Positions 2,517 to 63,204 of a DNA stretch of 64,000 bases are shown in pieces (the first letter of the stretch is position 1; each line of letters opens with the position of its first letter). The position numbers and the translations under genes are program-made. The DNA is taken from positions 2,893 through 66,892 of IMG/VR virus record IMGVR_UViG_3300034101_005796; one strand, given 5' to 3'. This DNA comes from a virus. The notes beneath the pieces are model-generated. The model was not told where the DNA came from. It searched no databases and saw only the letters and a list, made by a program, of their open reading frames with translations.

Positions 2517-5224
2517 AGTCGGATCTGCAATTTGCCTGAGGGCGTAATCAGGGCTATTTGGCCGCGTGGGTCGAACAACTCCTCGGGATCGCTTTCCAGA
2601 GAGTCATCAATATCGAAGGCCGTCAGGCGCAGGCGCAAAGCTGAAGGCAGCGGAAAGGCGACCCCATCCGACGCCTTGCCATACGCCCGCCATGATGTGC
2701 TCATCCCGCCGCTTTCACGGAGAATGGAGAGGTTCCACGCGAATGTTTCTTGCGCTGAGGACAAGCCGATGCGCGTTCTGCCCAATACAATCGGGGCCGC
2801 CGCTGGCCCCAGAAACGATTCGGAGGCAATGATCGGCACCGCCTCGCACTGCAGAAAATACTGAGCTGCATAATCCACGCGCCCCCGCCCGCGCGCCTCG
2901 TCATCAAAAAAGCTGCCCAGCATGCGGATACGCACTTCGCCACTGGCCGTCAGCGTTGCCCCAACGGGGAACTGGTCTCCGGTCAGCATAATCCGCCACA
3001 GTTCGCGCTCCATTTCCAGCGGATAAAACGTATTTTGATCTCGGAACACGCGATACAAACACCTCCCATCGTCTGCGAAAAATCCATTGGCAGGCACGTT
3101 CTGCCCCTTCCGCCCTCCCCCGCCCGGCAAAGCGAGCGGTGTGCTCGCCTGATACACCTTCGGCCGACGTGTCGACCCCGTCAACGAGGGAACAGCCGCC
3201 ACCGCCGCGTAAGATGCACTGCTGCCAAAATAGGTTGTGCCGTTATATTCGATCGCCGTGCCATAATAAATGGCAGGCAGCAAATACGGCCAACGGTCTC
3301 CCTTCAACATCGACTCCGACCGCGCGGGCCAGCTAACGGGTTTTGCGGGCTCTTCAGGCACCGCATCTTCAACCACGCTGCCCTTTTCATCGAGCGTGGC
3401 CTTTTGCCCCATCTTTCCGATGCTTCCCGTTCCGGGCAGCAACACGCGGTAAAGCACACCGACCGGAAGAGCGTCCGGGTCTTTCGTATTCGCTGCCGCG
3501 GAATTTTCGACTTGCTGCACTTGATCCGACAAATCCGTCCCTGTCGGGTAGTTTTGCTTGATGGTGTTGCCCGGCGCAGGCACCACCACGATCTGGGAAG
3601 CCAAAGTATTGGTGGATCCCACCGTCGCAATGTCGGGCAGCAACTCACCCACCGCAGGAAGTTGAAATCCGACGATCGGCGCTCCGCTGGCAATGCCCGT
3701 GGTGCCCGCACGCGGTATGAGTTGTTCGACAATGGCAATCCGCCGCAGCATTTCATCGAGAAGCGGTTTAAGCCCGACCACTTGCTCCTGCGTATGCTCA
3801 TGCGGCTCCCAATCCCTTACCGTGGGTGCGCCCTGCACCGTAACCACAATGCCGTTGGCGGGTGGCGCGGCAGAAAATTCCAGCGTCAGTGAATTTTCAT
3901 CTTCAAGGCGTGCCGTGTAAGCCGTTCCAAACGCTAAAACATTCCATTCGTCGTCGTTCGTCCGAACAATGATGTTCGCCACCGCACCGTTAAGACCATG
4001 AACCACCTCGAACTCGGTGGAAGATCCGTTGCCAAGAGTCGTCGAATACGACTGCGGCCCCGTGACCACCTGATTCGGCAGAAAAGGCACATAAGTCACC
4101 GGGTTGGTTCGTAGCCAATCCGTGCTTGGTGCCACCGCCATATCGGGCATGATCTGCGGGCGCACGATCGTCAGCGTCGTCTGCCACAGTTTCCGCGTCA
4201 CCGTGCCCTCCGAGAAATCTCGGGGATTCTTGTAAAAATCGGCTTCCGCCTCAAAAGGCACGGTGATCCTTTCGCTGTCGCGCAGAGCAAAAAACAACTC
4301 CGCTCGGTCCAGCGGCAGCTCAAACGTCCAGTCTCCCGGCGGCGCGGAGTAGACGACCACCTGCAATTCTTCGACATCGCTCCCCGCCAAATCTCCCACA
4401 AATTCGATGTGCGCGGTATCGTTGAGGGGATTTGTCACCACCACGGACCCGACCCGTCCCGTGGGAAGATCGAGCATTCTGTTGATGGCCTGCTCGATTT
4501 GACGAGGCCCATCATCGCGACTTAAAAGACCCGTTTTTGCGTATTGGCCATAGCGCAACTGATAAACGCCTTGAAAGGTTGGCGGCACATAAAACTCCTG
4601 AATCTCATTCCAAAAATATGTGTTTGAGGGATCGGCGCCACCATTGACCAAGGTTTTGATCGTGGGCGCATTCGGCAAAACGCGATCGGCCGAGTCCGAA
4701 AATGCGTAAGGGGCTACCGTCAGCCGCAACTCATACGCCCAATGGCCATCGGTCTCCACGCCCGTGAAGCGCACGAAACTCACCGGCACCAGCCGATTCG
4801 CTGCTACCGTTAGCAACTGAGCCGCGCCGTCGCTCCTCCGAATCAGCACCCCTCCGGGAATGTCCATACACACAAAAGACGAAGCCTTGCCGGAAAGTGC
4901 ATTCAACGCCGCAGAAATGTCCGCCGCCGTAGAGGTCGCCGAAAGAAACTCCGTGGTATTCACTCCGACCTGAGTGGAGGCCGTGCCGATCTTGATCCGA
5001 TACAGCCCGCTGGCTGGACGCTGATCGACAGGGCCAATTCCTACCCGCAAGGCAGCGATCTCCTGCACGCGCTCGGTGAATCGGTTGTCCTTGAACTCCA
5101 GAAAGCGCAAGCTGTAGCGCAGAGCGCCCCCGGCAACCACGGGCGGAAACCGCAGCTCATCACCCGCCGCCGTCAAGCACGCGCGGCCGTTGTAAAGGTC
5201 GACGTAAAATAGATTTCCGGTCAC
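2513..5224 (-). CDS. Large tail tip/hub-like structural protein
   Basis: 903-aa beta-rich ORF downstream of tape measure; contains LGNGSSTEFEVVHGL and HEHTQEQVVGL fibre-type motifs; GTG start with upstream TTGACG motif. Confidence 0.7.
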   Translation of the reverse strand: MTGNLFYVDLYNGRACLTAAGDELRFPPVVAGGALRYSLRFLEFKDNRFTERVQEIAALRVGIGPVDQRPASGLYRIKIGTASTQVGVNTTEFLSATSTAADISAALNALSGKASSFVCMDIPGGVLIRRSDGAAQLLTVAANRLVPVSFVRFTGVETDGHWAYELRLTVAPYAFSDSADRVLPNAPTIKTLVNGGADPSNTYFWNEIQEFYVPPTFQGVYQLRYGQYAKTGLLSRDDGPRQIEQAINRMLDLPTGRVGSVVVTNPLNDTAHIEFVGDLAGSDVEELQVVVYSAPPGDWTFELPLDRAELFFALRDSERITVPFEAEADFYKNPRDFSEGTVTRKLWQTTLTIVRPQIMPDMAVAPSTDWLRTNPVTYVPFLPNQVVTGPQSYSTTLGNGSSTEFEVVHGLNGAVANIIVRTNDDEWNVLAFGTAYTARLEDENSLTLEFSAAPPANGIVVTVQGAPTVRDWEPHEHTQEQVVGLKPLLDEMLRRIAIVEQLIPRAGTTGIASGAPIVGFQLPAVGELLPDIATVGSTNTLASQIVVVPAPGNTIKQNYPTGTDLSDQVQQVENSAAANTKDPDALPVGVLYRVLLPGTGSIGKMGQKATLDEKGSVVEDAVPEEPAKPVSWPARSESMLKGDRWPYLLPAIYYGTAIEYNGTTYFGSSASYAAVAAVPSLTGSTRRPKVYQASTPLALPGGGGRKGQNVPANGFFADDGRCLYRVFRDQNTFYPLEMERELWRIMLTGDQFPVGATLTASGEVRIRMLGSFFDDEARGRGRVDYAAQYFLQCEAVPIIASESFLGPAAAPIVLGRTRIGLSSAQETFAWNLSILRESGGMSTSWRAYGKASDGVAFPLPSALRLRLTAFDIDDSLESDPEELFDPRGQIALITPSGKLQIRL

Positions 5225-5248
5225 TTACTCCCCATTGCCGTCAACTCG

Positions 5249-5434
5249 TCAACTTCCGGTGCTCTCATCCGGTTCGGAAGACTGAACTCGAAAGTGCGCC
5301 GGGGAGAAACTCATGACCTCATAGGGAAATGGCAGCTGCAGAATCGACTGCTCCTCGGCATTGAGCGCCCGCAGGCGGCGCTCCTTGTTGAGACCAAACC
5401 CATCTGAAAGCAGCAAAGAGCTTAGGTCAGCCAT
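5249..5434 (-). CDS. Small hypothetical tail-module protein
   Basis: 61-aa ORF preceded by AGGAGG Shine-Dalgarno. Confidence 0.65.
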   Translation of the reverse strand: MADLSSLLLSDGFGLNKERRLRALNAEEQSILQLPFPYEVMSFSPAHFRVQSSEPDESTGS

Positions 5435-11400: not shown

Positions 11401-12062
11401 GCCATCTGCTGATTCGAGAGCTGTTGCTGCAGCCCCTCGACGGTAGAGGCCAATTCCTGCGCCGCACCTTTGGCTTTCGCTGTATCCGCCGCGAGGAGGC
11501 GCATGGCTTCACTGGCCGGAGCGCCCGATTGGGCCAGATCGGCGATCTTACGCGCCGTTTGATCCGAAATAGCTCCCATTTCCGCCAGCTGGTTGGCGGC
11601 CGTGGCCACCCCGTCCCCGCCGCTTTTCAACGCCCCCGCCAATCCGCCCATCGCCCCCGCCACGGCATCGACCGGCGCCCCCGTCGCCGCGGCGACATCC
11701 TGCACCTGCTGCAACGCCGCCGTGGAATTGAAGGCGCCCTTCGAAAGCGCTTGCAGGTTCAAAGCCGCCTTGCCCAAAGCCTCAAAGGCAAAGGGACTGC
11801 GCTGCGCCTCGGCGGTCAACTCGGCAACTTTCTTTCGGGCGGCGTCGGCGCTGCCTAGCAGTGTTTTGAAAAGGGCCGTCAGCCTATTGGCCTCACCCGA
11901 AGCCTGCAAGGCTGCCTGCATTTTCTCCGCATTGAGCGCCGCCCCCGCCATCGCCTTCACAAAAGCCGTCGCGCCGATCGTCAGGGCCGCCATCGGCCCC
12001 ACCGTGTCGTTCAACAGCTGCTTGATATTAAAGCCTCCTCGGGGTGGTGGATTTACCGCCAT
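8484..12062 (-). CDS. Tail tape measure protein
   Basis: 1192-aa Ala/Gln-rich helical protein with the tape-measure N-terminal motif (FKTLLGSADAARKKVAEL...SPF) and central hydrophobic segments. Confidence 0.9.
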   Translation of the reverse strand: MAVNPPPRGGFNIKQLLNDTVGPMAALTIGATAFVKAMAGAALNAEKMQAALQASGEANRLTALFKTLLGSADAARKKVAELTAEAQRSPFAFEALGKAALNLQALSKGAFNSTAALQQVQDVAAATGAPVDAVAGAMGGLAGALKSGGDGVATAANQLAEMGAISDQTARKIADLAQSGAPASEAMRLLAADTAKAKGAAQELASTVEGLQQQLSNQQMASDAKIGDMFKEANEAGGRAALGFQKFGAALQEAAAGPWAVMMSGVQGVKEALGNFLATVGQMGVVQGVFKALGTVAAAVLTILAVSLLGASKAIIGFIIQTRVAQAAMVGMMGTARAWAGLMTGLSGGLVLVASGLVMLATKAIQARQQVASLNRELQQSRAQTGQTAGSLASSAAAVQTPEDLDKAKSSAKEAVAAAQKNLADAKQRRDTARQDRDKYYGINPDGTRGMAAPDVTFGIEGQRREDVLAAAEQGVSDAESGLTQIQGFAQQILSINQAALALDAKRTQEARERAKLEREIAEDARLAAAQMGAGSKEALQVLKDDSAKKRQDAEKASQKIDTGRRAIAEVKTERPEFGASSSQKELDAAIAQKDEQLRALRGQKEEQSGSARSFGDVQSAIAAGGRGVTDQQIRQAEQERQDLINQRTQAGAAGQTDSLRAAFAALQEIERKAPTDDNDVTRTSAQIAQRQLLRDAETEATKVLANTAGPDEFIDSNQDGIRQANEEGGPSADQRTAAQALLNAVIELTNSIGGAEQTSGAAIQQLEFRRDEGLEKSNLPRAIQTDESNANLLQGQAVAEAEAEFSMQRLRNETMIAQLKKTGAQVAQEELQAQLKAAQALERAQKVAAAPVKEGNAAAFDEAQERVKNAEVRAEDYLEEKPNLTANEAQRDLEQAQKATADAAVDLNLKTEDPEVIQNELRPKVDKVLAGTATEDEQRIVEVALEMTGLEDVEALDAALIDLQSKANQEWRLQFRADALKELEEAREAAANVAPGNKEQAQQAQAAVRAAEVQLAAVGGGGRSADEIQAEQVAAQESQAKVVSDMNRQAQIQALRVQENFGTDRRGAKEAADALEDEALKEERAREIGKTVSNPNLSPEENAANAKSLAGFQVDMERAAKNIEETKQPRMSDLASVGGAAGFGGLVNDPSAEIKKLQEIAKQQKDFLQQMNNREQEMAQWARTQAGETLE

Positions 12063-12085
12063 AACTCACAAATGCAGTCAACAGA

Positions 12086-12895
12086 TCAGGTCGCCCCTTG
12101 CGTCACCATGCGTTCGATCACCTCTTCCCAATACCTCACCTGCGCATGCGCCAGTGCCTCCTTGGGACTTTTCTTCTCTTCCTCGGCGATTGTTAGAGCT
12201 TTGGCGGCAATCTTCTCGCCCCGCGCCTTGACCATCTGCTCCATTCGCAAGTCATCCATCGGCGTCCAAAGATTCACCTTGGCGCCATCGCATTTCGCCA
12301 TGGCCACATTCATCCACACCAACTCTCCGATCGGCATGTTCCAAGCTGTCGCCGGGGCATGGCCGTGGCGGCAGAACAGCGCCACTTGCTCCATGGCATC
12401 GTCCAAATCCCTGTCCGTGGCCCTCTCCCCGCTGAGGGTTTGGCACTCCCGATACTTGGCCGCGATGGCTTGTGCTTCCTCCCCCTCCAAAAAAGGCAAC
12501 AGCTGTTGGTAAGCCTCCCCCAATTTTTTATACGAGCTGCCGATCCCCTGCCAAGTTTTAGGCGGTGCGTTGTATTCCTTGATGTAGGCCACAAACTTCG
12601 TCATTTCCTTTTCCACGGAAAAGCGACTGAAGCGCAGCCACCATAGCCAATGCCACCACAAGGAATACTTTGGCTTGATCCGCGGCCGTTGTGGGTAGTC
12701 CGTGCAGCAAACCCTTGCCGCCAACCACACGTCCCACAAAGTGGCTCCCCCGAGCAGCACCCGAGAGTTCCACTGCTCCAGCTGCAGCTTATGCCAAAAC
12801 GTAAACGGCTTGAGCCGGTAGCCTAAAATGCGATGGCGACCGTCATGAAAGAGGCTTTCCGCCAGCCGCTCATCGACGATGAACCGAGCATCCAC
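12086..12895 (-). CDS. Putative tail assembly chaperone
   Basis: Directly upstream of TMP; AWNMPIGE motif typical of chaperone C-termini. Confidence 0.6.
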   Translation of the reverse strand: MDARFIVDERLAESLFHDGRHRILGYRLKPFTFWHKLQLEQWNSRVLLGGATLWDVWLAARVCCTDYPQRPRIKPKYSLWWHWLWWLRFSRFSVEKEMTKFVAYIKEYNAPPKTWQGIGSSYKKLGEAYQQLLPFLEGEEAQAIAAKYRECQTLSGERATDRDLDDAMEQVALFCRHGHAPATAWNMPIGELVWMNVAMAKCDGAKVNLWTPMDDLRMEQMVKARGEKIAAKALTIAEEEKKSPKEALAHAQVRYWEEVIERMVTQGAT

Positions 12896-12898
12896 GCA

Positions 12899-13225
12899 CT
12901 ATGCTGGCAAGCCCCGGCCTTCTGCCGAGAACCGGCTGAAATCTTCATTGCTGCGCTCAATAGTCACGCTGGTGACTTTGCCAGCCGCGCCCGCCACCGA
13001 AATTTCTCCCCCAAGTGCAGGACCTGCTGCGTCGGTGCTATACCCGCTCACGCTGAGTGCAATACTTTCCTTACCCATCAGCACGGCCACGACATTCCCT
13101 TCTGAATCCTTGGCGCGAGACAATGTGCCGAAAGATCGTTCGGCGGAAGCCGACGTGGGATGTGAAATTCCTCCACAAGTTGCGTTAACACCAGTCGTTG
13201 AAGCTCCAAGTTGCATTATAGCCAT
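12899..13225 (-). CDS. Putative small tail tube protein
   Basis: 108-aa beta-rich Ser/Thr/Gly protein with AGGAGG SD, in the tail-tube position. Confidence 0.55.
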   Translation of the reverse strand: MAIMQLGASTTGVNATCGGISHPTSASAERSFGTLSRAKDSEGNVVAVLMGKESIALSVSGYSTDAAGPALGGEISVAGAAGKVTSVTIERSNEDFSRFSAEGRGLPA

Positions 13226-13240
13226 AATTTTACCTCCTGA

Positions 13241-13519
13241 TTAAAATTCAAAGTCGATTGATTCGGTGGTTGTTTTTGTAGCGTCTTCGTTAGACATCTC
13301 TACCCGAGAGCGAATGGTGCTGGCATTCAAAGCTGACAGACCGCTCCCTAAGGTCGTGGTCGCCGTCGTCGTTTCAGCGCCGGAATAGATTACGTCCACC
13401 AAACTGCCGCCCTCCCCCACCACTTCAACTTCTGAGGAATACCTCTTGTTGATGGTTTCCCTTATCCCTTGATCCAGAAAATCTAGAGTTGCGCCGCGGC
13501 GAATCAGTGCTTGTGCCAT
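13241..13519 (-). CDS. Small tail-tube-like protein
   Basis: Start reassigned to ATG 13519 (MAQALIRRG) with TTGACA 15 bp upstream; ends ...SNED..., like 12899-13225. Confidence 0.55.
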   Translation of the reverse strand: MAQALIRRGATLDFLDQGIRETINKRYSSEVEVVGEGGSLVDVIYSGAETTTATTTLGSGLSALNASTIRSRVEMSNEDATKTTTESIDFEF

Positions 13520-13536
13520 AATGCTTAGACGCCGTG

Positions 13537-13977
13537 TCAACCCATCGCCTTGCGAAAATACAACGCCTCCTTGCCACCCCATCGCTCCGCCGGACTATAC
13601 AGCTTGAAGCCCGCCCGGATCAGGCTGTTCGCACTGGCCAGATTTGCCGCCACCACATACGTCACCACCTCCTTCAGTCCCAGCCGCCGCGCCATTCGCA
13701 CCCGCGCATGAACCAGCCGCCGCTGACGCCCCTGCCCACGGTGCCCCGCCACCACCCCCGCACGCGACAAATACCCCAGCCCCCGATTGTAATCCGCGCC
13801 GCACACTTTGAGGCCCGCAAAGGCCACCGGCTTGCCCTTCTCCTCATCAATCCACCAATACGCCCCCTCCGGTTTCACCCGCCAATCCCCCGGAAAACAT
13901 TGTGCATCCAGCTCCACAATCAGATCATGCACCCAAGCGGCGCACTCCTCCGGCGTTGCTACCAATCGCAGGCCCAT
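13537..13977 (-). CDS. GNAT family N-acetyltransferase
   Basis: Acetyl-CoA motif A (V..HRGQGRQRRL) and motif B (N..S..L.RAGF). Confidence 0.85.
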   Translation of the reverse strand: MGLRLVATPEECAAWVHDLIVELDAQCFPGDWRVKPEGAYWWIDEEKGKPVAFAGLKVCGADYNRGLGYLSRAGVVAGHRGQGRQRRLVHARVRMARRLGLKEVVTYVVAANLASANSLIRAGFKLYSPAERWGGKEALYFRKAMG

Positions 13978-13992
13978 GCGGGCCGCGTCCTG

Positions 13993-14415
13993 TCAAGCCA
14001 GCCGGATGTCCTTCTTGCGAAACGCCGACATGCTGCACTCCTTCCGCCCCGTCGTCTCCCAATCAATCACCATCCGGTCGCTCTTCACCGACACGATCTT
14101 GCCCTTGGTCCCCCGCTTGCGCGACACCACCGGCATCCCCGCTTTAGGCTCCATCGCCTTTGGCGCCACCTTCGGCGCGTTCGCTGCCATCTGGCTCACC
14201 TTCCGGTAGCCCGTGCGGCGAACAAAGCGGCCATCTTCCCACACCTTGAAATCCCGGAACTCGATGGTTCCCGCCTTGATGCCAGGATTGAGCACCTCGC
14301 GCACCCGCTCCGGCGAGCATTCCACCTGCTCCGCAATCTCGTCTCGTGTGCTCCAACCCTTCGGCCAGGCATAAGCCGAAACATTCATCCGGTTTACTTC
14401 GGCTTTCCAGTTCAT
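13993..14415 (-). CDS. Hypothetical protein with winged-HTH-like N-terminus
   Basis: TRDEIAEQVECSPERVREVL helix pattern; coupled to the phosphoesterase gene. Confidence 0.6.
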   Translation of the reverse strand: MNWKAEVNRMNVSAYAWPKGWSTRDEIAEQVECSPERVREVLNPGIKAGTIEFRDFKVWEDGRFVRRTGYRKVSQMAANAPKVAPKAMEPKAGMPVVSRKRGTKGKIVSVKSDRMVIDWETTGRKECSMSAFRKKDIRLA

Positions 14416-15416
14416 GCTAAAACAATCGGCGCTGTGATCGTGCGACCTCTCTTCGAGTCGAAGAGAAAATATGTCTGCTGCGGCGGCTCATAGGAGGCCT
14501 TGATGCTGATCGCGTAAGCATTGTAGCCGATCAGCGAGCCATTGCTCACCCACTTCGGATTCTGCTGTTGCGTGTGCCAGTGCCCGAAACAATCCAGATC
14601 CGCCACGCGTGCTTTGTTCCAAGAAGCAATCGCCTTCTCCGTCGGGATCGTCAGCCCGCCGATCCCGCCCTGATACTTCAGTCCGTCCCCATGGTGAAAC
14701 CGCAACGTCTTGCCAAACAGCTCCACGTAATTGAAATACGAATCCGCCACCTGCCACTCCACCCCTTCCTGCATCCGCTGCGACATCACCTTGTAAAGCA
14801 ACCACTCGTAGCTGTTACGAAACCCCGTGGCATGCCTCGGCTTCTTCGTCGTCCGCCCGTGGTTGCCGTAGCAACACGGGATCAGAACCCGCGCGAAATT
14901 TTGCCGCAAAGAGGCAATCCCCCGCGACACCCGCTCCATTACCCACAAAATCGTCTCCGTCGGACTCAGCGCATTTGTCTCCGCCAGTTCCTCGTGGATA
15001 TACCCGCTCATCAAATCGCCGCCTAAAAACAGCACGCACGTGTCGATCTCCGCACCGTTGCGCTCGATCTCCGTCAGCCGCACCACACTGTTGAAAAACT
15101 TCTCGATCCGGGCCTCCGCCACGCGCAGGTCGAAATGATTCAGCCCATTGGTCGAATCCGCCGTCACTTGCTCTTCCACGTGCCAATCACTCGCCAAAGC
15201 CACCGCCACCGCCTCGCACTTCGCCGTCTTCTTCACCGCCAACGGCTTCTGCGAAGGCTTCGCCGCATTCAACGCATCGACCACCCCCAGCTGCTCCTCT
15301 AATTCCTTGATCCGCTCCAGCCCGGCCGTAATCTGCCGCTTGTAATCCGACACCACACTGCGATGCGCGTGCTCCGCGCTCTCCCGCGCAATCGCTCCCC
15401 AGTTATCTTTGGGCAT
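14412..15416 (-). CDS. Calcineurin-like metallophosphoesterase
   Basis: Motifs SDWH, GGD, GNHGR, HHGD, GHWH; N-terminal coiled coil. Confidence 0.88.
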   Translation of the reverse strand: MPKDNWGAIARESAEHAHRSVVSDYKRQITAGLERIKELEEQLGVVDALNAAKPSQKPLAVKKTAKCEAVAVALASDWHVEEQVTADSTNGLNHFDLRVAEARIEKFFNSVVRLTEIERNGAEIDTCVLFLGGDLMSGYIHEELAETNALSPTETILWVMERVSRGIASLRQNFARVLIPCCYGNHGRTTKKPRHATGFRNSYEWLLYKVMSQRMQEGVEWQVADSYFNYVELFGKTLRFHHGDGLKYQGGIGGLTIPTEKAIASWNKARVADLDCFGHWHTQQQNPKWVSNGSLIGYNAYAISIKASYEPPQQTYFLFDSKRGRTITAPIVLA

Positions 15417-15510
15417 GACACCCTTACAGTGTCAACCCCCACGCCCCCGTGGTATAAAGAAGTGCCCCAATCGGCGGGGGTGCAGATGAAACAGCCTCTT
15501 TTGGCAAACA

Positions 15511-15933: not shown

Positions 15934-15934
15934 G

Positions 15935-16306: not shown

Positions 16307-16330
16307 ACCGCCACCCCGCCGTCAACCCCA

Positions 16331-16368: not shown

Positions 16369-16390
16369 CGTTGCAGGATGGTGAAACTTC

Positions 16391-17371: not shown

Positions 17372-17392
17372 AATTTTATCCTCCTTCGATGA

Positions 17393-19451: not shown

Positions 19452-19458
19452 GGTAAAA

Positions 19459-51210: not shown

Positions 51211-51832
51211 AAACCTTCTGCCCGTCACTAATCGCCCGCTCGATGTCCTGCCGGATGATCTCCGCCGCCGTCACATCATCGGCCGGAGCAACCTTGGGCG
51301 CGATCACCGCCGGTAGACCACGCAAACGCGCCAGCAGCGCCCCCCAGCCCTTCCCAAACATCTCGCGCGCCACATCAAAGGGAATCAGCACCCGCGCCTT
51401 CTCCTTGATCTCCAAGACCATCTTCTCCGAAGCCATGCGGCCTTCTTTGGCTTTGTTGTAGGTCTGGATCAAAAGTGGCAGCTTCTCCACCGCATCCGCC
51501 GCAATCGCGCTCTCCACAAGATACTTGGCCTGCTCCTCGATCTCGATGGACGCCTTCAACGAAGCCTCCATCTGCGTCAGACTCCGCCGCCGTGGCCTCC
51601 GAGGCGTGTGCACAGCCTCAGAAGGAATGCTTGCTTCCCCTTCAGACCGTTTGCTTCGAAAACCCACGCCACCCCTCGCGTTCGCCAACCTCCACTCCCG
51701 CGCCGCCTCCAAGCTATCCACCGGGCAACCTTTCTGATTCTTCATCCTCGAAACGTAAGCCACACTGGTCCCCCAATCGGCCGCAATCTCTGCCAAAGTG
51801 ACCCTTCCCCCCTCTGTAGACTCCTTCTCCAT
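51191..51832 (-). CDS. Terminase small subunit (Nu1-like)
   Basis: N-terminal HTH (AEIAADWGTS.AYVSR...GCP) and C-terminal L..LP...AP; directly upstream of TerL. Confidence 0.8.
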   Translation of the reverse strand: MEKESTEGGRVTLAEIAADWGTSVAYVSRMKNQKGCPVDSLEAAREWRLANARGGVGFRSKRSEGEASIPSEAVHTPRRPRRRSLTQMEASLKASIEIEEQAKYLVESAIAADAVEKLPLLIQTYNKAKEGRMASEKMVLEIKEKARVLIPFDVAREMFGKGWGALLARLRGLPAVIAPKVAPADDVTAAEIIRQDIERAISDGQKVYEQVLA

Positions 51833-52136
51833 AACCGCCCCATCCCGCTCCTCAACTTAACTTGTCAACCAGTTCACTGGTCACAGGTTAATGTAAGGGT
51901 CGCTTCGCTGAAACCTGACGCTTTTGCAGGTTAATAGATTCCTTTACCATGGTGGTGGGCAAAATTACTTACCCTTCTTAGGCAAAGCTCATAAGTCCCC
52001 CCATATACTACTTCACTCCTTGTTTTCAGAAAACATACAGGAAAAGCCTAAGTAAGTTAAGGATACGAGATTGCATTGTATCGTATTCTTGAAGCAAGAT
52101 AGCTAAAGAGGATCGCAAGGAGAAGCGCAAGGAGCG

Positions 52137-53486
52137 CTAATTAGTTCGTAAGCGAACGCCCCGAAGCCAGTATTGAGGCTGCCTATTTCGGTGCTGAACT
52201 ACTCTGATCTGTGGGTTGCGCTCATAGAGAGCGCGAAAGAAATACTCCCTAGTGCGATGGGCAAACTGATGAGCGTCCAAAAACTCAGAAAAAGCCTCCA
52301 TAACTGCATCTTTGCTTTCCTCATGATCACCGTCGAAATCAAGGCTTTCAGAGACGAAACACTGGACAGGATCGTTGGAAAGCTGGAATCTGCGAATGGC
52401 GTTATTGCTCTCCTCTCCGCCATAAGGCGCCGAAACTCCCTCCAGAATGGCGCGCAGGCCCTCAACAGCCCAGTAGAGGATGTAGTCCTTCTGGGCAACC
52501 AGCTTGTCCTTGAGGGTTCGATCTATTGCCTCCGGCTTCTTACCAAAGGCCAAGAAGCGCGCGCGGCGCAGTTCTGCGTCTGTGCCGTGCTTGAATCGAG
52601 GCATGACGTTTGAGAGGAACAGATGCTTACACGTGCTATTCATCGTGAACGGCTTTCCGTAAATGCTGCGCGCTACAATGCTTTCACCTGAGATAAGCTG
52701 TTTGAATGTTCCCGACTCATCGACTTCTACGGTGTCCAATTCAGTCCCGAGATTAACCATGGCCCTTTCCAGAGTCGGAAGTGAATAAGAGCCAGGGCCG
52801 GAGCTGCATATCTGCGACAAAGAGAGCTTTCGCACCAGCACATCGTCGTCGAATGCAGAGACTATGGCCTCTGCCAGAGTGCTCTTACCCGTGCCACCCG
52901 GCCCGTAGCAAATGAGGAACACCTCATGCTGCTTGCAGTCTGGGAAGAGACAATAGCCAGCAAACCACTGCAAGAGCGACTTGTCCTTGACGTTGTGAAG
53001 AGTCGCGTTGAGGGCTTCCTCAAAAATTGGTGATTCCGCATTTGCGTGATAATTCGAGGGCAGACAACCCGTGAAGAGATAGCTGGGATCGTGAGGAAGC
53101 ACTTCGACCCCCTCAGGGGAAACACGCAACACCCCATTATTTACGTTCACAAGCACCTTGCCGTCGTCGTCAAAGATGATAGCTCCGCGCAACTTTTCAT
53201 TCTTCACCTGCCGTGCTGCTTCAACGGCATTTAGCACGTTGGCGGCCAACCTCGCACTTCGATGTGCGAGCGGCAAAATATCGTAGACCGTGCTGACATA
53301 CTGCTTGCGGCGAGAGGGGCGCCAGGCCTTACCGTCATACTCAAACCAATCGTCTTCATACACCATGATCGGTGGGATCTTGAGCATGAGACTCTGATAA
53401 ATCTGATGCTCATCAAATCGGTCCTTACCGGCACCCGTGATCTGGATTAGCGGATTCTCGCCGCGCGGCTTTATTTTGTTTGCCAT
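52137..53486 (-). CDS. SF3 helicase, P4/D5 primase-helicase family
   Basis: VNNGVL D5_N motif, YGPGGTGKST Walker A, FKQLISGE and RR.RFL.F. Confidence 0.9.
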   Translation of the reverse strand: MANKIKPRGENPLIQITGAGKDRFDEHQIYQSLMLKIPPIMVYEDDWFEYDGKAWRPSRRKQYVSTVYDILPLAHRSARLAANVLNAVEAARQVKNEKLRGAIIFDDDGKVLVNVNNGVLRVSPEGVEVLPHDPSYLFTGCLPSNYHANAESPIFEEALNATLHNVKDKSLLQWFAGYCLFPDCKQHEVFLICYGPGGTGKSTLAEAIVSAFDDDVLVRKLSLSQICSSGPGSYSLPTLERAMVNLGTELDTVEVDESGTFKQLISGESIVARSIYGKPFTMNSTCKHLFLSNVMPRFKHGTDAELRRARFLAFGKKPEAIDRTLKDKLVAQKDYILYWAVEGLRAILEGVSAPYGGEESNNAIRRFQLSNDPVQCFVSESLDFDGDHEESKDAVMEAFSEFLDAHQFAHRTREYFFRALYERNPQIRVVQHRNRQPQYWLRGVRLRTN

Positions 53487-54535
53487 TTTCGCCTCCTTGC
53501 TTTTTGGCCATTGAGATAATGGTGCCGCAAAAATTCACGTAAATCCGTTGAAGTGATGCCCCAATCATGTTTCATCCAATCGTTGAAATCTTTCACTCCG
53601 TCTGATCCCACTTTGAAACAGAAGAAGTGGATCGCGCGGCAGCGCAGAGCCAATGCACCGCTCAACGAATCCGAGCGCTGCCACGCCAATCCGGCTTCAT
53701 CTGCATCGGCAAAAATGAATGCCTGCGTCTCAGGGGACCACTCATAGTCCAGAATACGACGCCACGCCGTAGCCCCTCGTATACCAACAATCGCCACACC
53801 TTTAAGCGGTGTCTTGAAGGCGGCGACAGCATCATAAAACGCAATAGCATCCCACTGCCCCTCCAAAACAACCAATGCGTGACAGTGAATGATGTCACCG
53901 ATGACAAATGGCCACGAACCAATCCCCTGCGGCTCGAAACGATACCGCCCCTTGAGCTTCGGAGTATGGACATGATAACCCGCAAGAAAGCGGCCTGTGG
54001 TTCCGCTATTTGGTATTTCTACGGCGAAAGCCTCGCACCTCTTCCCACGATAAACCGGCAAGCCCATCAATCCGCGCTCGGCCATATCACAAATAGTGGC
54101 GGATTCGAAACCACGCCATTCGGCAATTCGCTTTTGCTCCGCCTCGGAATTACGCAAACACTTCACGCCTTCCTCCCATAGCGACAACCCCTCTCCCGTG
54201 AGTGGCACGACCTCAGTTTCATCTTGCGGCAGCGGACGCTTCTCCGGCTCAAGCCACACAATTCCCTCGGATGAGCACAGCGACTTTTTTGCATCCGCGA
54301 GCGACACATTCCGCGTCCTCATCCAATAGTCAAAAACATCCCCTGCGGCATCACACCCAAAGCACTTGAAACGATCACCAGCGTGACTTGCGGTGATATA
54401 GAAGGAAGGCGTGCGTTCGCTGTGAAATGGGCACAAAGCCGCAAACCTTGATCCCCCGGATCGACGTATCTTGACGCCATCACGGGTGAGAATGTCTCGG
54501 AGTGAGACCCTGCGTTTAAGCTCGGATAATTCCAT
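53471..54535 (-). CDS. DNA primase (CHC2 Zn finger + Toprim)
   Basis: CPFHSERTPSF...FKCFGC...GDVFD; VLEGQWDA; FADADEAG; KDFND. Confidence 0.9.
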   Translation of the reverse strand: MELSELKRRVSLRDILTRDGVKIRRSGGSRFAALCPFHSERTPSFYITASHAGDRFKCFGCDAAGDVFDYWMRTRNVSLADAKKSLCSSEGIVWLEPEKRPLPQDETEVVPLTGEGLSLWEEGVKCLRNSEAEQKRIAEWRGFESATICDMAERGLMGLPVYRGKRCEAFAVEIPNSGTTGRFLAGYHVHTPKLKGRYRFEPQGIGSWPFVIGDIIHCHALVVLEGQWDAIAFYDAVAAFKTPLKGVAIVGIRGATAWRRILDYEWSPETQAFIFADADEAGLAWQRSDSLSGALALRCRAIHFFCFKVGSDGVKDFNDWMKHDWGITSTDLREFLRHHYLNGQKARRRKWQTK

Positions 54536-56073: not shown

Positions 56074-56430
56074 TTAGTCCCGGCGCATCTCCATCCAATC
56101 CGTTGAGCGGCGCACCTCCTCGGCCAACAAATGTTCATCCACGCCCAGATACTCCGCCGTCTGTTGTGTCGTTTTCAGCAGCGACCGCCGCATAAACACC
56201 CACACCCGCAACGCCAGTGCCACCGAGAAAGCCGCCAGCCTCGGCTCCCGCGCGCCCGACAAGCGCACAATCAGCTTGTTCATCAGCCACGCATTGTAAT
56301 TACGCGCCTCCGCGCGCAGCCGCCGCTCATGCAACTCCACCACCCGCTCCGCCAAGTCCTGCCGGAAACCGAATCGTGCGCGCAAATCCGCGACCTTCCG
56401 CTCATGATCCTGTGGGTCGATGATGTCCAT
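56074..56430 (-). CDS. HTH protein, short paralog of 56432-57181
   Basis: FGF...WLMNK...RL...ALAL...TQQTAEYLGV motifs shared with the upstream gene. Confidence 0.65.
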   Translation of the reverse strand: MDIIDPQDHERKVADLRARFGFRQDLAERVVELHERRLRAEARNYNAWLMNKLIVRLSGAREPRLAAFSVALALRVWVFMRRSLLKTTQQTAEYLGVDEHLLAEEVRRSTDWMEMRRD

Positions 56431-56431: not shown

Positions 56432-57181
56432 TCAGTTCCAGCCGAAGACCCGATGCCGCCAATGATTGCCCGTCTGCGCCCGCCGGAACGACTCCACCGC
56501 CCCCGGCGTCTTCATGTGCAGACCCTCACTGATTCCTAAAAACTCCGCCGCCTTTCGCACCTCCTTCGAGAGATTCTGCCGCGTCGTCGCCAGCGCTTGC
56601 GCCGCCGACATCTGCGTGCGACAAGGAACCCGCCGCATCCGCCGCGACCCATTCTCCTCCGTGACATGCCGCATGATCCAGACTTCCGGCACTGAGAGCG
56701 CAAAGGCCACCGCCACCGACGCCACCTTGGCATTTGTTGCTGCCGCAAGCCGCTGCAACACCTTGTTGAGCAACCAATCCGAATAAGCCAACCCCCGAGG
56801 CCGCGCCTCCAGCTCATCCCATTTCGCCAGCGCCACCGCCGTCTCCCGATCAAAGCCAAACTGCTCCTGCAGCTCATCCGCCAGCGAATCCAAAGCCGCC
56901 GCCATATCCACCACGTAGGAAGCCCTCGACGAATTCGCGACATCCTCATCCAGCCCTGCATCCGACCGCGCCGCCACCTCCCCATGCACCAAGGCCAGCT
57001 TCTCCGCCGCCGACAGCTCATACCACCGATCCGCCACCTTCCCGTAGGACGGACTCAGCAGCACCAAATCCCGCTCCTCCCGCGGCAATTCATCCAGCCA
57101 CTCCAGCATCCGCGCCTCCGCGATACGCCGCATCCCCTCCGCGCGCGCCTCATAAGGCAACTCCGATGACACCATATTCAT
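56432..57181 (-). CDS. Sigma-region-4-like HTH protein, candidate late regulator
   Basis: C-terminal TQMSAAQALATTRQNLSKEV helix-turn-helix. Confidence 0.6.
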   Translation of the reverse strand: MNMVSSELPYEARAEGMRRIAEARMLEWLDELPREERDLVLLSPSYGKVADRWYELSAAEKLALVHGEVAARSDAGLDEDVANSSRASYVVDMAAALDSLADELQEQFGFDRETAVALAKWDELEARPRGLAYSDWLLNKVLQRLAAATNAKVASVAVAFALSVPEVWIMRHVTEENGSRRMRRVPCRTQMSAAQALATTRQNLSKEVRKAAEFLGISEGLHMKTPGAVESFRRAQTGNHWRHRVFGWN

Positions 57182-57378: not shown

Positions 57379-57558
57379 CGCCGCCGCCGCTCTTGCTCGA
57401 TGCCCTGATGGCGTCCCCGATGCAGACCCATGTCATACGCCGAAAAAATGCACAACGCCCCCGCCGCGCCAATGGCCAGAGCGAGCAAAAGAACCGCGAG
57501 ATAGTCGCTCACGGCCGCCCCCTCCGAGGAATTCTGTTCAGAGGTCCTAAGGGCCGAA

Positions 57559-57730
57559 GTGCTGCACTTTTCCCCTTGCGCGCTGCACTAACAGGGTGAG
57601 GCGAGGGTCGGAATCGAACCGACGCAACGGGGGGCATCATTTTTATTCGGGATAACATTTGCATATTTCTCTGTGGATTTAGTTGTTTGCGGGGGTATCT
57701 GAGTCTATGTTTGCTGCACAGTGCTGCACT
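57559..57730. promoter_or_regulatory. Putative integrase arm-type sites (GCTGCAC x4) flanking the att core
   Basis: GTGCTGCACT 57559, GCGCTGCACT 57580, TTGCTGCACA 57711, GTGCTGCACT 57721. Confidence 0.6.
57597..57626 (-). other. attP core: tRNA 3'-half fragment (Cys-like)
   Basis: Minus strand TGCGTCGGTTCGATTCCGACCCTCGCCTCA = T-arm plus acceptor 3' strand; no 5' half; 127 bp from integrase start. Confidence 0.75.
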
Positions 57731-57753
57731 GCTAACGCAGTTTTAGACTCCTC

Positions 57754-58791
57754 ATGGCCTCGCTCTACCGTCGTCCCCGCTCGCCCTATTACTACCTCTC
57801 GTTTTTCGAGGCTGGTCTGCGGCGGCACATCAGCACCGGCTTGCGCGCCGACGACGCCGCCGACCGGCGCCGCGCCGAAGCGCTTCTGGCCAAATACACC
57901 TACGCCGAAAAACTCGCGCCTCCCGGCGGCCACGCTCTCGGCAGCGGATGGGATTGGGTGCCCTCCTTCATCGAATCCATAGCGCGCGCCCCGCGCACCC
58001 TTGAGGCCTACGAGCTGCGTTGGCGGAATCTTTCGCTGTATCTCCGCGAGCAAAAGCTCGCGCATCCGCGCGCCCTTCGCCATGAGCATGCTCAGGCGTA
58101 TCTCCGTTGGCGCACGGCGCACAAAAGGCCCGCTGGCAAACACATTGCCCACAACACCGCCACTGGGGAGGTCAAGATGCTCAAGACCTTGCTCAACGAG
58201 GCCAAAGTCCGGGGCTTGGTTGATCGCAACGTCTTCGATTCCTTCCGCGCCCGCTACGACGCCATCGCTGAGAAGCCCGAGATCAACGAGGCCGAGCAAG
58301 GTCTTATTGAGACCGCGCTCCTCACTCAGCCCACGTGGATGCGCCGTGCCTTCCGCATCAGTATGGCCACCGGCTGCCGCCTGCGGGAGACCCGCATTGA
58401 CCTCCGCACCCAAGTCGACTTGGAGCGTGCCACCCTCCACTTTCCTGCGCCCAAAGGCGGGCGCCGCCGCGCCTACAGCATTCCGCTGCCGCAAAGCCTG
58501 CGCACGCTCTTCGAGGAGTTGTTGCAAGCGGGCACGCGCTACACCGTCGACTTCCCCGAGTGCCCGTCGAAGGACTGGCGCTTCTTCTTCGATTCCTTGG
58601 ATTTGCCGCACCATTGTTTTCATTGTTGCCGCGTCACCTTCATCACCCGACTCGCTCGAGCAAACGTGCCGCTCTCGGTGGCCATGCGTCTGGTGAATCA
58701 TGCGTCGGAGACGATTCACAAAATTTATCAGCGCGTGAACGTCGACGACTTGCGCGTTTGGGCGGCGCAACTGGAATCGGCGCAGCATTAG
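57754..58791 (+). CDS. int: Tyrosine integrase
   Basis: MASLYRRPRSPYYY N-terminus; TGCR, PKG, FHCCRVTF, VNH and IY catalytic residues. Confidence 0.93.
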   Translation: MASLYRRPRSPYYYLSFFEAGLRRHISTGLRADDAADRRRAEALLAKYTYAEKLAPPGGHALGSGWDWVPSFIESIARAPRTLEAYELRWRNLSLYLREQKLAHPRALRHEHAQAYLRWRTAHKRPAGKHIAHNTATGEVKMLKTLLNEAKVRGLVDRNVFDSFRARYDAIAEKPEINEAEQGLIETALLTQPTWMRRAFRISMATGCRLRETRIDLRTQVDLERATLHFPAPKGGRRRAYSIPLPQSLRTLFEELLQAGTRYTVDFPECPSKDWRFFFDSLDLPHHCFHCCRVTFITRLARANVPLSVAMRLVNHASETIHKIYQRVNVDDLRVWAAQLESAQH

Positions 58792-59280: not shown

Positions 59281-59496
59281 GTGAGCAGTCACCCCCAAGA
59301 CGACCTCTGCACCGAGACCCTGACCATCCGCATTGACCAGCGCACCTTGCAGCGCATCGAAGCCCTAGCCGGGGCTAACGGACTGAAGCGTTCCGAATAC
59401 ATTCGCGATATTTTGCGAATAGCAGCCGAGAATCGCCTTAAAATCACTTACGGCCTCGAGAGCTTTCAGCTCCCCACCTTGAAACCGGCCGATTAA
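59281..59496 (+). CDS. Ribbon-helix-helix (CopG-like) regulator
   Basis: TLTIRIDQRTLQRIEALA...GLKRSEYIRDIL; GTG start after TTGACC-17-GACAGT. Confidence 0.8.
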   Translation: MSSHPQDDLCTETLTIRIDQRTLQRIEALAGANGLKRSEYIRDILRIAAENRLKITYGLESFQLPTLKPAD

Positions 59497-60122
59497 CCCG
59501 TCCAATCCGCGTTCTTCCCCCGCACATCCACGTGCGTGAAGGTGCGGTATTTCCCGATCCCGCCCTTGAAAACACCCTCCTTGCGCATCTGGGTGAGAAT
59601 TTTGTGCAGGGTAATCGGCGACCCGGCGAGATCCAGCGCCGCCCCCTTCGTATGGTAGGAGTTACTGGCGGCTCCAGACAGTGCTCTATTGTAAGCAGGA
59701 CTCCGGTAGGCCGAGTTGATTTTGAGCGGCTTGCCCAGCCGGTGCCGGGCCTCGTCGGCCACCCGCACCACCGCCACCAGAGAAGGCCAGAACTCGCGCG
59801 GGGGATCGGTGTTGATCTTGAGCCGCGCATCCCGCGCCCCACGATAGAACACCTCTTGCGCCGTAAAATAGCGCACGCCCGCCTTATCCAGCAGTGCTTG
59901 AAATTCTTCCTTTGGAATCAGCGATGGTTTTGCGCTTTTTGGCTTCTTGTTGGAGTCGGGTTTGGGCGGCGGCGAGGACTTCGCCACAATCGGAGAGTGA
60001 CAATGCTCGCACCAGCGCAAGGGCGATGGCTCTTCGGTCGTCCTCTGGCCATTTGGCGAGGCCGCGAATAAGTGTTTCAACCATGTCAGAAAGTTCATCT
60101 CCTTAGAATTCGACGCGCCCAC
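59493..60122 (-). CDS. Endolysin, peptidase M15A
   Basis: INSAYRSPAYN, SYHTKGAALD, GGIGKY.TFTHVDVRG; start may be 60122 or 60098. Confidence 0.9.
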   Translation of the reverse strand: MGASNSKEMNFLTWLKHLFAASPNGQRTTEEPSPLRWCEHCHSPIVAKSSPPPKPDSNKKPKSAKPSLIPKEEFQALLDKAGVRYFTAQEVFYRGARDARLKINTDPPREFWPSLVAVVRVADEARHRLGKPLKINSAYRSPAYNRALSGAASNSYHTKGAALDLAGSPITLHKILTQMRKEGVFKGGIGKYRTFTHVDVRGKNADWTG

Positions 60123-60279
60123 GCAGTCCGAGGAACGTCAACCCCTTGCGGCCGACGCGAATCGCCGGTTGCAGAGAGGCCAGCAATCTCACCAGCACGG
60201 GCCTCCGATCTACGCGGGCAGGCTTGGTAAAAATCGCCCGCAACATCGTCGCGTCGATTTGGTAAAGTCGCTCCTTCAT
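60103..60279 (-). CDS. Small lysis-cassette protein
   Basis: MKERLYQID...GRVEF; ATGA-coupled. Confidence 0.5.
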   Translation of the reverse strand: MKERLYQIDATMLRAIFTKPARVDRRPVLVRLLASLQPAIRVGRKGLTFLGLRGRVEF

Positions 60280-60670: not shown

Positions 60671-60694
60671 GCCCACCAGCGGCATGTCAAAGGC

Positions 60695-61682: not shown

Positions 61683-63181
61683 AGCCTTGTCCCCCTGAGA
61701 ATGACTTTGAGTCCAGCGCCCGAAGAAGGAGCTACGGCTTGGTCAATGTCGATAGTAATCTCAGCATCTTGCGAAAAATCACGATAAGTCGCATCAATCA
61801 CCGCAGGGGTTGCTGCTGTAGCACTTGTCTTTTCCGTGGCGTCGATAGAGAGCTTGGTGGACAGTGCCGAGTTGGCTCCATTATTGATGTCCACAATCAA
61901 AGTTCCACTTGTTGAAGCCGTAGTAACCGCCGCCGATACTGAAGTGAGGCGGAACGCCACGGGAGCGCGGAAGGTGACTTTGGCCGCCCCCGCCGTCAGC
62001 GCCGTGGTTTCGTTGGAACAGGCAATGACGTATTCGACAAACGGCGTCAACGTGGGTTTGTTAAGAATCTCCGCGTCGCCCGAAGTCGCGTTCCAGTCGG
62101 CCTTTGGAATATTCGCAATGTCCCGTCCATCAATATTCAGCCGATTGCCCGGCCCTAAGTCCTGCCAATATACCGTATCGGTTACAGGCAGAGATTCATT
62201 GTCGAATTTCGCCCGATAAATCCGCCCTCCTGAATGCACTACATCCCCCGCGAGGTAGCGGGTTCCGTCAACAAGTGTATGGTTTGCAGTCCACGGAACG
62301 GCGGCGTTGAAATAGAGGTCGTCGTGATTGTGGGCAGAAGGCGGAATCGAGGAGGGTTTATTTAGGATCTCCGCGTCGCCCGAAGTCGCGTTCCAATCCG
62401 CTTTCACTGGAGGTGATATTTCCACATAAGTGGAAAGCGCCGTCACCCACACATATGTTTTGAAAGTGTCTAGAGCCGTATATACACGATTCAGATCCCC
62501 CGTTGCAGGGAACGCCGCCCGGTTCGCAAAAGAAGGAAAAAAGTTCAGATGCGCTCTCGCGTCTGTCAGCGAAGATGTGATCAAAGTTCTGCCTGAGCTA
62601 GTGGAGTCGGAGATTTGGCTGGCCAACACGGTCGCCGGGGAGGCCGCGCCGCCGCCCAGCGCTTGAATCGCTTCCTTCGTCCGAAGGGGCGTCATCCATT
62701 TCTCATTACTTGTCCCCGCTTGCGCCTCTGCCTGCGTGGCCTTCAATTCAATAGCGGCCGACGGCTCTCCCTCATCACCCCGGATCACATCATTAGCCAC
62801 AATGATACGCAGCGCGGTGCTGGAAAAAATCTGCGCGCCCGAAGTCACCGACACCTCTGCAAGCAACGCCACCGTTGCTGCCTCTTCGGCAAACAGCGTT
62901 TCCAGCTGCTGTGTGTTAAGATCCAAATCGAAAGAATAGTGCCTGTCCGCCCCGTAGCCGGAGGGCGCCCAGCTTGAGGCCAGCGCCATATAGTCTCCGC
63001 CATACTGCTGCTTCAGCGCCAATATGCCGGTTGCATTTTCGGGCCACTCGACCACCTGCCCATCTTTGGCGAACCGAACAGCAACAACCACACGGTCGCG
63101 CCGTCTCAAAGAAATTGAGGAAACCTGAGCATTGGCCCACGTGCTCCACGCCCCGGTCTCAAGATCAATACGCAGCCTCAT
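61679..63181 (-). CDS. Tail fibre protein
   Basis: ATQAEAQAGT...MTPLRT, two KADWNATSGDAEILNKP repeats, HNHDDLY, CBM5/12-like segment, C-terminal DIDQ...GAGLKV domain. Confidence 0.85.
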   Translation of the reverse strand: MRLRIDLETGAWSTWANAQVSSISLRRRDRVVVAVRFAKDGQVVEWPENATGILALKQQYGGDYMALASSWAPSGYGADRHYSFDLDLNTQQLETLFAEEAATVALLAEVSVTSGAQIFSSTALRIIVANDVIRGDEGEPSAAIELKATQAEAQAGTSNEKWMTPLRTKEAIQALGGGAASPATVLASQISDSTSSGRTLITSSLTDARAHLNFFPSFANRAAFPATGDLNRVYTALDTFKTYVWVTALSTYVEISPPVKADWNATSGDAEILNKPSSIPPSAHNHDDLYFNAAVPWTANHTLVDGTRYLAGDVVHSGGRIYRAKFDNESLPVTDTVYWQDLGPGNRLNIDGRDIANIPKADWNATSGDAEILNKPTLTPFVEYVIACSNETTALTAGAAKVTFRAPVAFRLTSVSAAVTTASTSGTLIVDINNGANSALSTKLSIDATEKTSATAATPAVIDATYRDFSQDAEITIDIDQAVAPSSGAGLKVILRGTRL

Positions 63182-63204
63182 GCCTGCGCCACCTGTGTCA
63201 ATAG

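Follow-up and report, generated by a model that had tools for sequence, protein, structure and literature searches.

The stretch of viral DNA considered here, called the window, is 64,000 nucleotides (nt) long and corresponds to bases 2893-66892 of a single virus record, IMGVR_UViG_3300034101_005796, which is 66,892 bp in length; its guanine-plus-cytosine (GC) content is about 59%. Many late genes in the window are preceded by a short element, TTGAC followed by A, T, or G (TTGACD), that stands alone, with no -35 partner. An initial annotation had listed 15 such sites on the minus strand, 13 of them 13 to 16 nt before a start codon and two (before 18531 and 20288) at 20 nt, and every one is present at those spacers. 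Two copies can be added, at 51868 and 1777, both with 30-nt spacers, so that the window contains 17. They are listed below with their spacers and with the open reading frames (ORFs) that follow, whose sizes are given in amino acids (aa).

63196-63201, minus strand: TTGACA, 14 nt before ATG 63181 (500-aa ORF)
60685-60690, minus strand: TTGACA, 14 nt before ATG 60670 (57-aa ORF beside the endolysin gene)
60136-60141, minus strand: TTGACG, 13 nt before GTG 60122 (209-aa Peptidase_M15 endolysin)
51863-51868, minus strand: GGTTGACA, 30 nt before ATG 51832 (213-aa small-terminase-like gene, followed by TerL)
45500-45505, minus strand: TTGACA, 13 nt before ATG 45486 (107-aa gene)
27212-27217, minus strand: TTGACA, 14 nt before ATG 27197 (81 aa, followed by the portal gene); its TGA is the stop of ORF 27214-27480
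24486-24491, minus strand: TTGACA, 14 nt before ATG 24471, the conserved start of a large virion protein
20309-20314, minus strand: TTGACT, 20 nt before ATG 20288; its TGA is the stop of ORF 20311-25086
19073-19078, minus strand: TTGACA, 16 nt before ATG 19056 (428 aa)
18552-18557, minus strand: TTGACA, 20 nt before ATG 18531, an internal start in frame (nested product of 253 aa), with a GAGGA Shine-Dalgarno (SD) sequence
16320-16325, minus strand: TTGACG, 13 nt before ATG 16306, after the capsid terminator
15430-15435, minus strand: TTGACA, 13 nt before ATG 15416 (334 aa), with a weak hairpin upstream at 15479-15465
13991-13996, minus strand: TTGACA, 13 nt before ATG 13977; its TGA is the stop of ORF 13993-14415
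13535-13540, minus strand: TTGACA, 15 nt before ATG 13519; its TGA is the stop of ORF 13537-13977
12076-12081, minus strand: TTGACT, 13 nt before ATG 12062 (1192-aa ORF)
5239-5252, minus strand: tandem TTGACG-AG-TTGACG, 14 and 22 nt before GTG 5224 (903 aa)
1772-1777, minus strand: TTGACA, 30 nt before ATG 1741 (1337-aa glycine-repeat fibre-like ORF)

The 1192-aa ORF at 12062 is a putative tape-measure gene, judged by its size and position; it had no family match. A frame of 205 codons (24474-25086, minus strand) reads through to 24471, where the large virion protein has its conserved start. Among the relatives, only G003 has this frame (59% identity), and four others lack it; an additional gene that has no stop codon, or an extension of the protein at its N terminus, could account for it.

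How far does this arrangement depart from expectation? The background was every position with an ATG opening at least 80 codons, internal in-frame ATGs included. On the minus strand, 10 of the 45 TTGACD copies lie 13 to 16 nt before the ATG of such an ORF, where 0.9 would be expected (binomial P = 1.7e-8), and TTGAC ranks first among all pentamers at that offset. At 12 to 21 nt, the figure is 12 of 45 vs 2.2 expected. None of the 19 copies on the plus strand lies before an ATG-initiated ORF at 13 to 16 nt. Across the window TTGACD is under-represented, with 64 copies vs 86 +/- 8.6 in dinucleotide shuffles, and the pattern is therefore positional, not compositional. The longer form RRTTGACW (R, purine; W, A or T) is more selective: the 66.9-kb genome has 8 copies on its late strand, each of them 12 to 30 nt before an ATG-initiated ORF, and none on the opposite strand. 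Over six genomes, the same is true of 53 of 66 late-strand copies vs 1 of 14 on the other strand.

One might suspect chance, or a by-product of coding and stop-codon constraints, as TTGAC contains TGA. At five copies this TGA is indeed the stop of the upstream ORF (ORF ends 5249, 13537, 13993, 20311, and 27214), and with a 13-nt spacer it falls in frame with the ATG. Most copies, however, do not serve an upstream gene in this way; there the distance to an upstream stop runs from 2 nt to beyond 90 nt, where such a stop exists at all. Because the distance to the stop codon varies, the element is tied to the downstream start rather than to the end of the upstream ORF. Chance is also hard to reconcile with the P value obtained against so generous a background, with the preference for purines upstream of the element, and with the behavior of TTGACC, which precedes an ATG-initiated ORF at 12 to 21 nt in none of its 17 minus-strand copies in the window and at the wider 12 to 30 nt in 1 of 18 copies in the genome. 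The element is, moreover, kept while its flanks and spacer differ (described below). An origin by chance or coding constraint is thus extremely improbable.

Alignment of 44 nonredundant sites from the window and five relatives gives the consensus R-R-T-T-G-A-C-(A 27, T 13, G 4), in which TTGAC is invariant and the positions upstream of it favor purines. Columns -40 to -3 carry no information, so that there is no conserved upstream partner, and downstream only a G-rich, SD-like patch and the ATG are seen. In four lineages the spacers peak at 13 nt (10 sites) and 14 nt (15 sites), with one site at 12 and a tail to 30. Tandem or overlapping copies like those at 5239-5252 also occur in L004, and in L060 (6215-6245, minus strand) the element before the first leftward gene belongs to a tandem GAAACGGTT-GAAACGGTTGAC repeat.

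Relatives are found as IMG/VR contigs with capsid identities of 62-98%. One relative (capsid identity, 73%) lies within a 104-kb contig of a metagenome-assembled genome (MAG) labelled uncultured Chthoniobacter, and because of this location the host is probably a member of the Verrucomicrobia, the MAG being the single host link. The initial annotation had proposed looking for the same geometry in related phages, and it does recur in them. Orthologous gene starts were compared across eight related loci, keeping orthologues with a tblastn match that began within the first 12 residues and with an ATG nearby; some junctions had few rows. Where the window has the element, 37 of 41 orthologues keep it, counting both the related viral contigs and the prophage of the Chthoniobacter MAG. 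Where the window lacks it, TTGAC was found within 45 nt in 2 of 36, one of these being a TTGACC that abuts the ATG. Flanks and spacers meanwhile diverge freely between lineages: orthologous spacers measure 14 to 21 nt before gene 20288 and 15 to 26 nt before gene 13519. The internal-start copy at 18531 is present in all seven orthologues. By contrast, the capsid gene (17371) and genes 17749 and 13225 never have the element and always have a strong AAGGAGG-type SD sequence.

TTGAC or an overlapping pentamer is also top-ranked in L027 (52.7% GC), L024, and L022. In L060 (48% GC), whose only link to the group is a 24%-identical homologue of the 249-aa protein described below, TTGAC is weakly top (P = 4.7e-3), with the same geometry on both strands. 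Is the arrangement a habit of the host? In the 3.6-Mb host MAG, the pattern RRTTGACW-N12-15-ATG matches nine times, five of them in the prophage contig (1+1 for the reversed-pattern control). The geometry is thus phage-specific, as the initial annotation had supposed, and rare elsewhere in the MAG. The observation is real, strongly nonrandom, and conserved.

Head, tail, lysis, and terminase genes have the element before them and the plus-strand early genes lack it, which supports a tie to the late temporal class. The landmarks, assigned with PHROGs and Pfam, are as follows.

16391-17371, minus strand: major head protein (capsid) gene
25192-26952: portal gene
43103-43957, plus strand: DpdA gene
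49399-51228: large terminase (TerL) gene
52137-54535: primase/helicase genes
57754-58791, plus strand: integrase gene
59493-60122: M15 endolysin gene

Is the element part of a promoter of a familiar kind? The initial annotation had noted that no -10 box accompanies it, and the scans agree. A hexamer close to the -35 consensus TTGACA is present, but in the scanned regions no -10 box of the form TANNNT was found 16 to 18 bp downstream of a copy; a sigma-70 scan of 12000-31900 returned two promoter-like sites, neither at a copy. As a -35 box, the element would place the transcription start about 16 nt inside the ORF, and the ATG and N termini are conserved in orthologues. An ordinary sigma-70 promoter was rejected on these two grounds, and so was an ordinary -35 box serving a more distant start, as there is no consistent in-frame start about 30 nt downstream and no -10 box. 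Sigma-54 promoters have GG at -24, 10 to 11 bp upstream of a TTGC -12 box. No conserved GG is found at -11/-12 from the element in the 44 sites, i.e., there is no -24 element, and this class was rejected as well.

The phage does have an early promoter of the sigma-70 type, to which the initial annotation had pointed for comparison.

31838-31874, plus strand: TTGACT-N16-TAGCTT-N6-ATG, leaderless geometry, before a 72-aa ORF

Here TAGCTT stands 16 nt and the ATG 28 nt downstream of the hexamer; this leaderless geometry occurs seven times in the host MAG vs once in the control. The early promoter and the late element share the hexamer TTGAC(A/T). Unlike the early promoter, the late copies have no -10 box, and their ATG lies at 13 to 16 nt rather than 28 nt. 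Beside this divergent promoter, on the minus strand, an exact 18-bp repeat, GTCTACCGAAATGGCCCC, occurs at 31550-31567 and 31801-31818 (0.05 expected by chance), about 12 to 20 nt before two ATGs of that strand, 31537 and 31789. The repeat may serve as an operator or represent another type of promoter.

What, then, does the element do? Part of the answer may lie in the units that it heads, several of which need a transcription start of their own. One is the 107-aa gene (45163-45486, minus strand), which stands among plus-strand genes with a divergent start codon about 25 nt upstream and is closed by a terminator into a one-gene unit. It is conserved in four of five relatives (34-72% identity), with TTGACA 13 to 16 nt before the ATG in all four. 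Its neighborhoods differ between relatives, and in one of them it lies behind a same-strand ORF whose stop is the element's TGA. No sigma-70-like site was found in a scan of 45100-45800. In L060, similarly, two divergent genes have starts about 80 bp apart, and the element stands 14 nt ahead of the first of them. A third case follows the capsid gene, where the initial annotation had expected reinitiation immediately after the terminator: the 16325 copy does lie 12 nt past the terminator stem, with the T-run between, and an element copy is found 1 to 15 nt after the capsid terminator in four of the six genomes examined. The two terminators are given here.

45117-45138, minus strand: terminator-like hairpin and T-run directly after the 107-aa gene
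16338-16369, minus strand: capsid terminator hairpin and T-run directly before the 16325 copy

Finally, the small-terminase-like gene, which opens the terminase operon, is preceded by 305 nt of noncoding DNA, and GGTTGACAAGTTAAG is identical in all five relatives 28 to 30 nt before its ATG. These units favor a promoter, and we infer that the element acts at the level of DNA. Within the same noncoding DNA, a block of about 130 nt (51869-52000, minus strand) is conserved across the five relatives and contains two ATTAACCTG repeats, an AACCTG...CAGGTT hairpin with compensatory changes, and a GCGAAGC minihairpin. Candidate roles for this block are those of a cos/pac site and of a control region for late genes.

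Might the element be read in RNA instead, in line with the translation-initiation signal that the initial annotation had offered as its second option? A phage protein could bind or cut UUGAC on the late mRNAs just 5' of the ribosome-binding region, making it a translational operator or enhancer, or a processing site that leaves a 5' end near the SD sequence or AUG. The geometry suits such a signal in that the distance to the start codon is tight (mode, 13 to 14 nt; one site at 12) and lies just outside the SD region, but at some conserved sites the spacer reaches 26 to 30 nt. The element is found on the coding strand only and marks even an in-frame internal start (18531), and bare copies are not clearly avoided on the noncoding strand, as would be expected if only the RNA matters. 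Inside the window's genes, the hexamer occurs 6 times in sense where 11.5 would be expected and 3 times in antisense where 8.7 would be expected, a trend toward avoidance. The phage-specific geometry would imply that a phage factor is needed, but the family searches produced no RNA-binding or nuclease candidate.

The 3' end of the host-family 16S rRNA, GGATCACCTCCTTTCT, has no GTCAA and nothing complementary to UUGAC, and on this basis a pairing site for the anti-SD sequence was rejected. The initial annotation had described the spacers as often lacking a good SD sequence, a premise that fails because SD energies do not differ statistically: the anti-SD duplex has a median energy of -6.0 kcal/mol at 15 motif starts vs -6.15 at 28 other starts (Mann-Whitney p = 0.84), with -4.6 for random 20-mers. 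The idea that the element replaces the SD sequence falls with it. The four genes with the strongest SD sequences (17749, 17371, 13225, and 5434) do lack the element in all relatives, though this is anecdotal. The nested 253-aa product at 18531 has a good SD sequence. As for RNA structure, none is shared after the element (median z, -0.3), and no Rfam family reached its gathering score. Moreover, the isolated 107-aa unit and the divergent unit in L060 would still need an unseen promoter inside neighboring genes. A signal in the RNA therefore seems unlikely on the whole, if worth keeping in view.

Strong structure was seen only in orthologues of gene 19056. There, the arms of a 10-bp hairpin (19066-19043, minus strand) enclose the ATG in a loop of 4 nt, and a T-run comes next. 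In L004/L005 and L027, the orthologues keep a hairpin although its sequence differs (z, -4.3, -6.5, and -4.4), a pattern suggestive of a conserved fold that throttles translation of the 428-aa gene.

If the element acts on DNA, which protein reads it? The searches turned up neither a sigma factor nor an RNA polymerase of the phage: Sigma70_r2 had no six-frame match, no large unassigned early protein was fit to be a polymerase, and the one match to the polymerase motif DFDGD lies within the primase-helicase. Two candidates were rejected. A GerE/LuxR protein with a helix-turn-helix (HTH) (42880-43149, 32 bits) is absent from G003, G001 contig 1, and G018, and relatives without it still keep the element, so it cannot be a universal factor. 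DpdA belongs to a family that carries out 7-deazaguanine DNA modification; it has no relative in the five related genomes compared and was rejected as a linked factor. For two conserved proteins of unassigned function, look-ups in an atlas gave only "hypothetical" clusters.

A further lead is a pair of tandem paralogues with a C-terminal HTH.

56432-57181, minus strand: 249-aa protein
56074-56430, minus strand: 118-aa protein

All of the related genomes that were examined keep the pair. Homologues in the 249-aa family number 25 and have no Pfam domain; one is named from a Verrucomicrobiota MAG. Its AlphaFold model, built from 25 sequences, has a predicted local distance difference test (pLDDT) score of 83.6. 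Foldseek searches with both 249-aa models gave no match at E <= 0.001, and profile searches of PDB sequences returned nothing relevant. In VIA-align, sigma region 4 and LuxR-type HTH domains are among the best matches to residues ~126-217, for instance, SigC region 4 (Z 4.9; root mean square deviation, 2.1 A over 60 residues) and Sigma-32 (Z 5.0). These Z values, at most 5.2, are under the tool's trust level and not above those of unrelated helical rows. The paralogues are a speculative candidate for the reader of the element, a lead and not a finding.

A further possibility is that the element is a DNA site for a late regulator and not a core promoter. An activator or sigma region 4 might make contact there, or a long late transcript might have it as a site of loading or pausing. 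Recognition by a region-4-like HTH is plausible because the phage's own early promoter uses this hexamer, the -35 consensus; the conserved paralogues offer a protein for the role, and the terminase copy lies within a larger conserved block with ATTAACCTG repeats. The position of the element is the difficulty. With its center about 17 to 20 nt before the ATG, it is too close for class I or II activation of an upstream promoter, and the start expected of it as a -35 box, together with the missing -10 box, has been described above. Nothing else is conserved from -40 to -3, and the structural matches are as weak as stated. A regulator site of this kind is improbable.

More specific is a promoter that has only a -35 box. 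Here, a sigma-region-4-like HTH protein (the 249/118-aa paralogues) would read RRTTGACW, and the host core polymerase would start 7 to 14 bp downstream with no -10 box, giving mRNAs that are leaderless or nearly so. To our knowledge, such an architecture has not been described for bacterial RNA polymerase. This version in full detail is more improbable still.

The reading that we prefer, with a probability of roughly 0.5, is broader: the element would be a late promoter, compact and specific to the phage, whose mRNAs have short leaders or none. RRTTGAC(A/T/G) would be the core, and possibly the only, DNA element of this promoter class. A phage-encoded factor would redirect the host RNA polymerase to it. 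Transcription would start a few bases downstream, within the 13 to 30 nt ahead of the start codon, so that every marked late gene or small operon would be transcribed separately, into an mRNA whose leader is very short or missing. Unmarked genes would lie inside units and rely on overlap coupling or a strong SD sequence. The flexibility of the spacer (13 to 26 nt, and 28 to 30 nt at the terminase gene) is easier to accommodate with a promoter than with a rigid ribosome contact. Where the spacer is 17 nt or more, a well-placed SD sequence begins 6 to 8 nt after the element, matching the 5' end expected if transcription began about 7 nt downstream. The initial annotation had proposed a phage-specific short promoter giving leaderless late mRNAs. 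Its phage specificity stands, and the headed units favor its promoter; its leaderless mRNAs fare less well, in that spacers of 13 to 30 nt and the SD sequences within the longer ones fit short leaders at least as well.

Several findings weigh against a late promoter. (i) The sharp peak at 13 to 14 nt also suits a signal read together with the start codon. (ii) The spacers, described as GC-rich in the initial annotation, are so (65% vs 59% for the genome; p = 0.007), which is unfavorable for melting. (iii) In the 44 sites, no position downstream of the element is held strongly to a purine. (iv) The capsid terminator is the sole terminator by strict criteria that adjoins a copy. (v) The avoidance of the hexamer inside genes was not reproduced in L002, L004, or L007. 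(vi) Besides the failure to find a phage sigma factor or polymerase, Pfam, PHROGs, and NCBIfam gave nothing on the candidate reader proteins.

Do known systems offer a precedent? The late promoters of T4 consist of TATAAATA, read by gp55 with gp33 and the clamp; this 8-bp element is AT-rich and -10-like, and its distance to the ATG is not known to be fixed. As in T4, a single element with no -35 partner defines the late class here, and in T4 a phage factor replaces sigma specificity. Unlike in T4, the element is TTGACW and not -10-like (TANNNT/TATAAATA), and no gp55-like or Sigma70_r2 protein was detected. For a signal in RNA, the nearest parallel is the operators of T4 RegA, AU-rich sites that overlap the AUG. 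Both systems have a short shared sequence near the ribosome-binding site of one temporal class of mRNA, which in the case of RegA is read by a protein. The element described here, however, is clear of the AUG, 13 nt or more upstream of it, and the family searches gave no RNA-binding protein. Phage morons are cassettes of promoter, gene, and terminator. The 107-aa gene resembles them with an element in front, a terminator behind, and differing neighborhoods; it departs from them in that its only candidate promoter is a bare TTGACA 13 to 16 nt from the ATG.

A further parallel is found in Thermus phages. Lalka27a is described as having 16 predicted single-element late promoters with mostly leaderless transcripts, and the late hexamer of Lalka27a and phiYS40 as the -10-type TAGGGT (TANNNT form), with transcription starting 6 bp downstream at the start codon (10.64898/2026.04.20.719267). 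The likenesses to the window are as follows. (i) Many late genes each have one short, class-specific hexamer near the start codon. (ii) Late promoters are dense, and a factor from the phage presumably respecifies the host RNA polymerase. (iii) Lalka27a and phiYS40 use leaderless translation, a likeness only to the extent that leaderless mRNAs are proposed here. The differences are that the hexamer in the window is the -35 consensus, stands at least 13 nt from the ATG, has no TANNNT, and is known from its sequence alone.

Why would such an element matter? If it is a promoter, a -35-type hexamer alone would specify initiation, at an unexpected distance, and this would be a new way for a phage, here from the Verrucomicrobia, to respecify the host RNA polymerase. 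If it is a signal in RNA, it would define a new phage-encoded posttranscriptional regulon. A search of the literature found no description of transcription in Verrucomicrobia phages or of this arrangement. The 8-mer RRTTGACW is an almost perfect marker of late gene starts in this phage group, with the counts given above, and helps with the choice of start codons, the detection of nested genes such as 18531, and operon maps in metagenomic phage contigs.

The remaining features concern the phage as a whole. In a phage collection, no cultured phage matched the capsid region (blastn) or the capsid protein (tblastn), and two scans of metagenome contigs for the capsid found nothing. Both ends of the contig (63900-64000 at the window's end; the other end lies outside the window's start) consist of GCCACC-type repeats, which encode the glycine-rich run of the 1337-aa fibre-like ORF. 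The assembly probably broke within this repeat, and the genome itself probably forms a closed circle. CheckV's figure of 64% seems an underestimate, because the relatives measure 64-67 kb.

Upstream of the first late element copy lies a cluster (27604-31123, minus strand) with a glycosyltransferase family 9 gene, an FkbM methyltransferase, and DUF5672; the glycosyltransferase is kept in four relatives. This cluster may be a module for modification of the cell surface. Adjoining the integrase gene is a fragment resembling the 3' end of a tRNA (GGTTCGATTCCGACC...; 57597-57640, minus strand), surrounded by several GTGCAGCA repeats (57540-57740). It is probably the core of attP. Lastly, about three tandem copies of a GC-rich, iteron-like unit of 65 to 70 bp follow the first early gene (32150-32345, plus strand) and may mark the replication origin.

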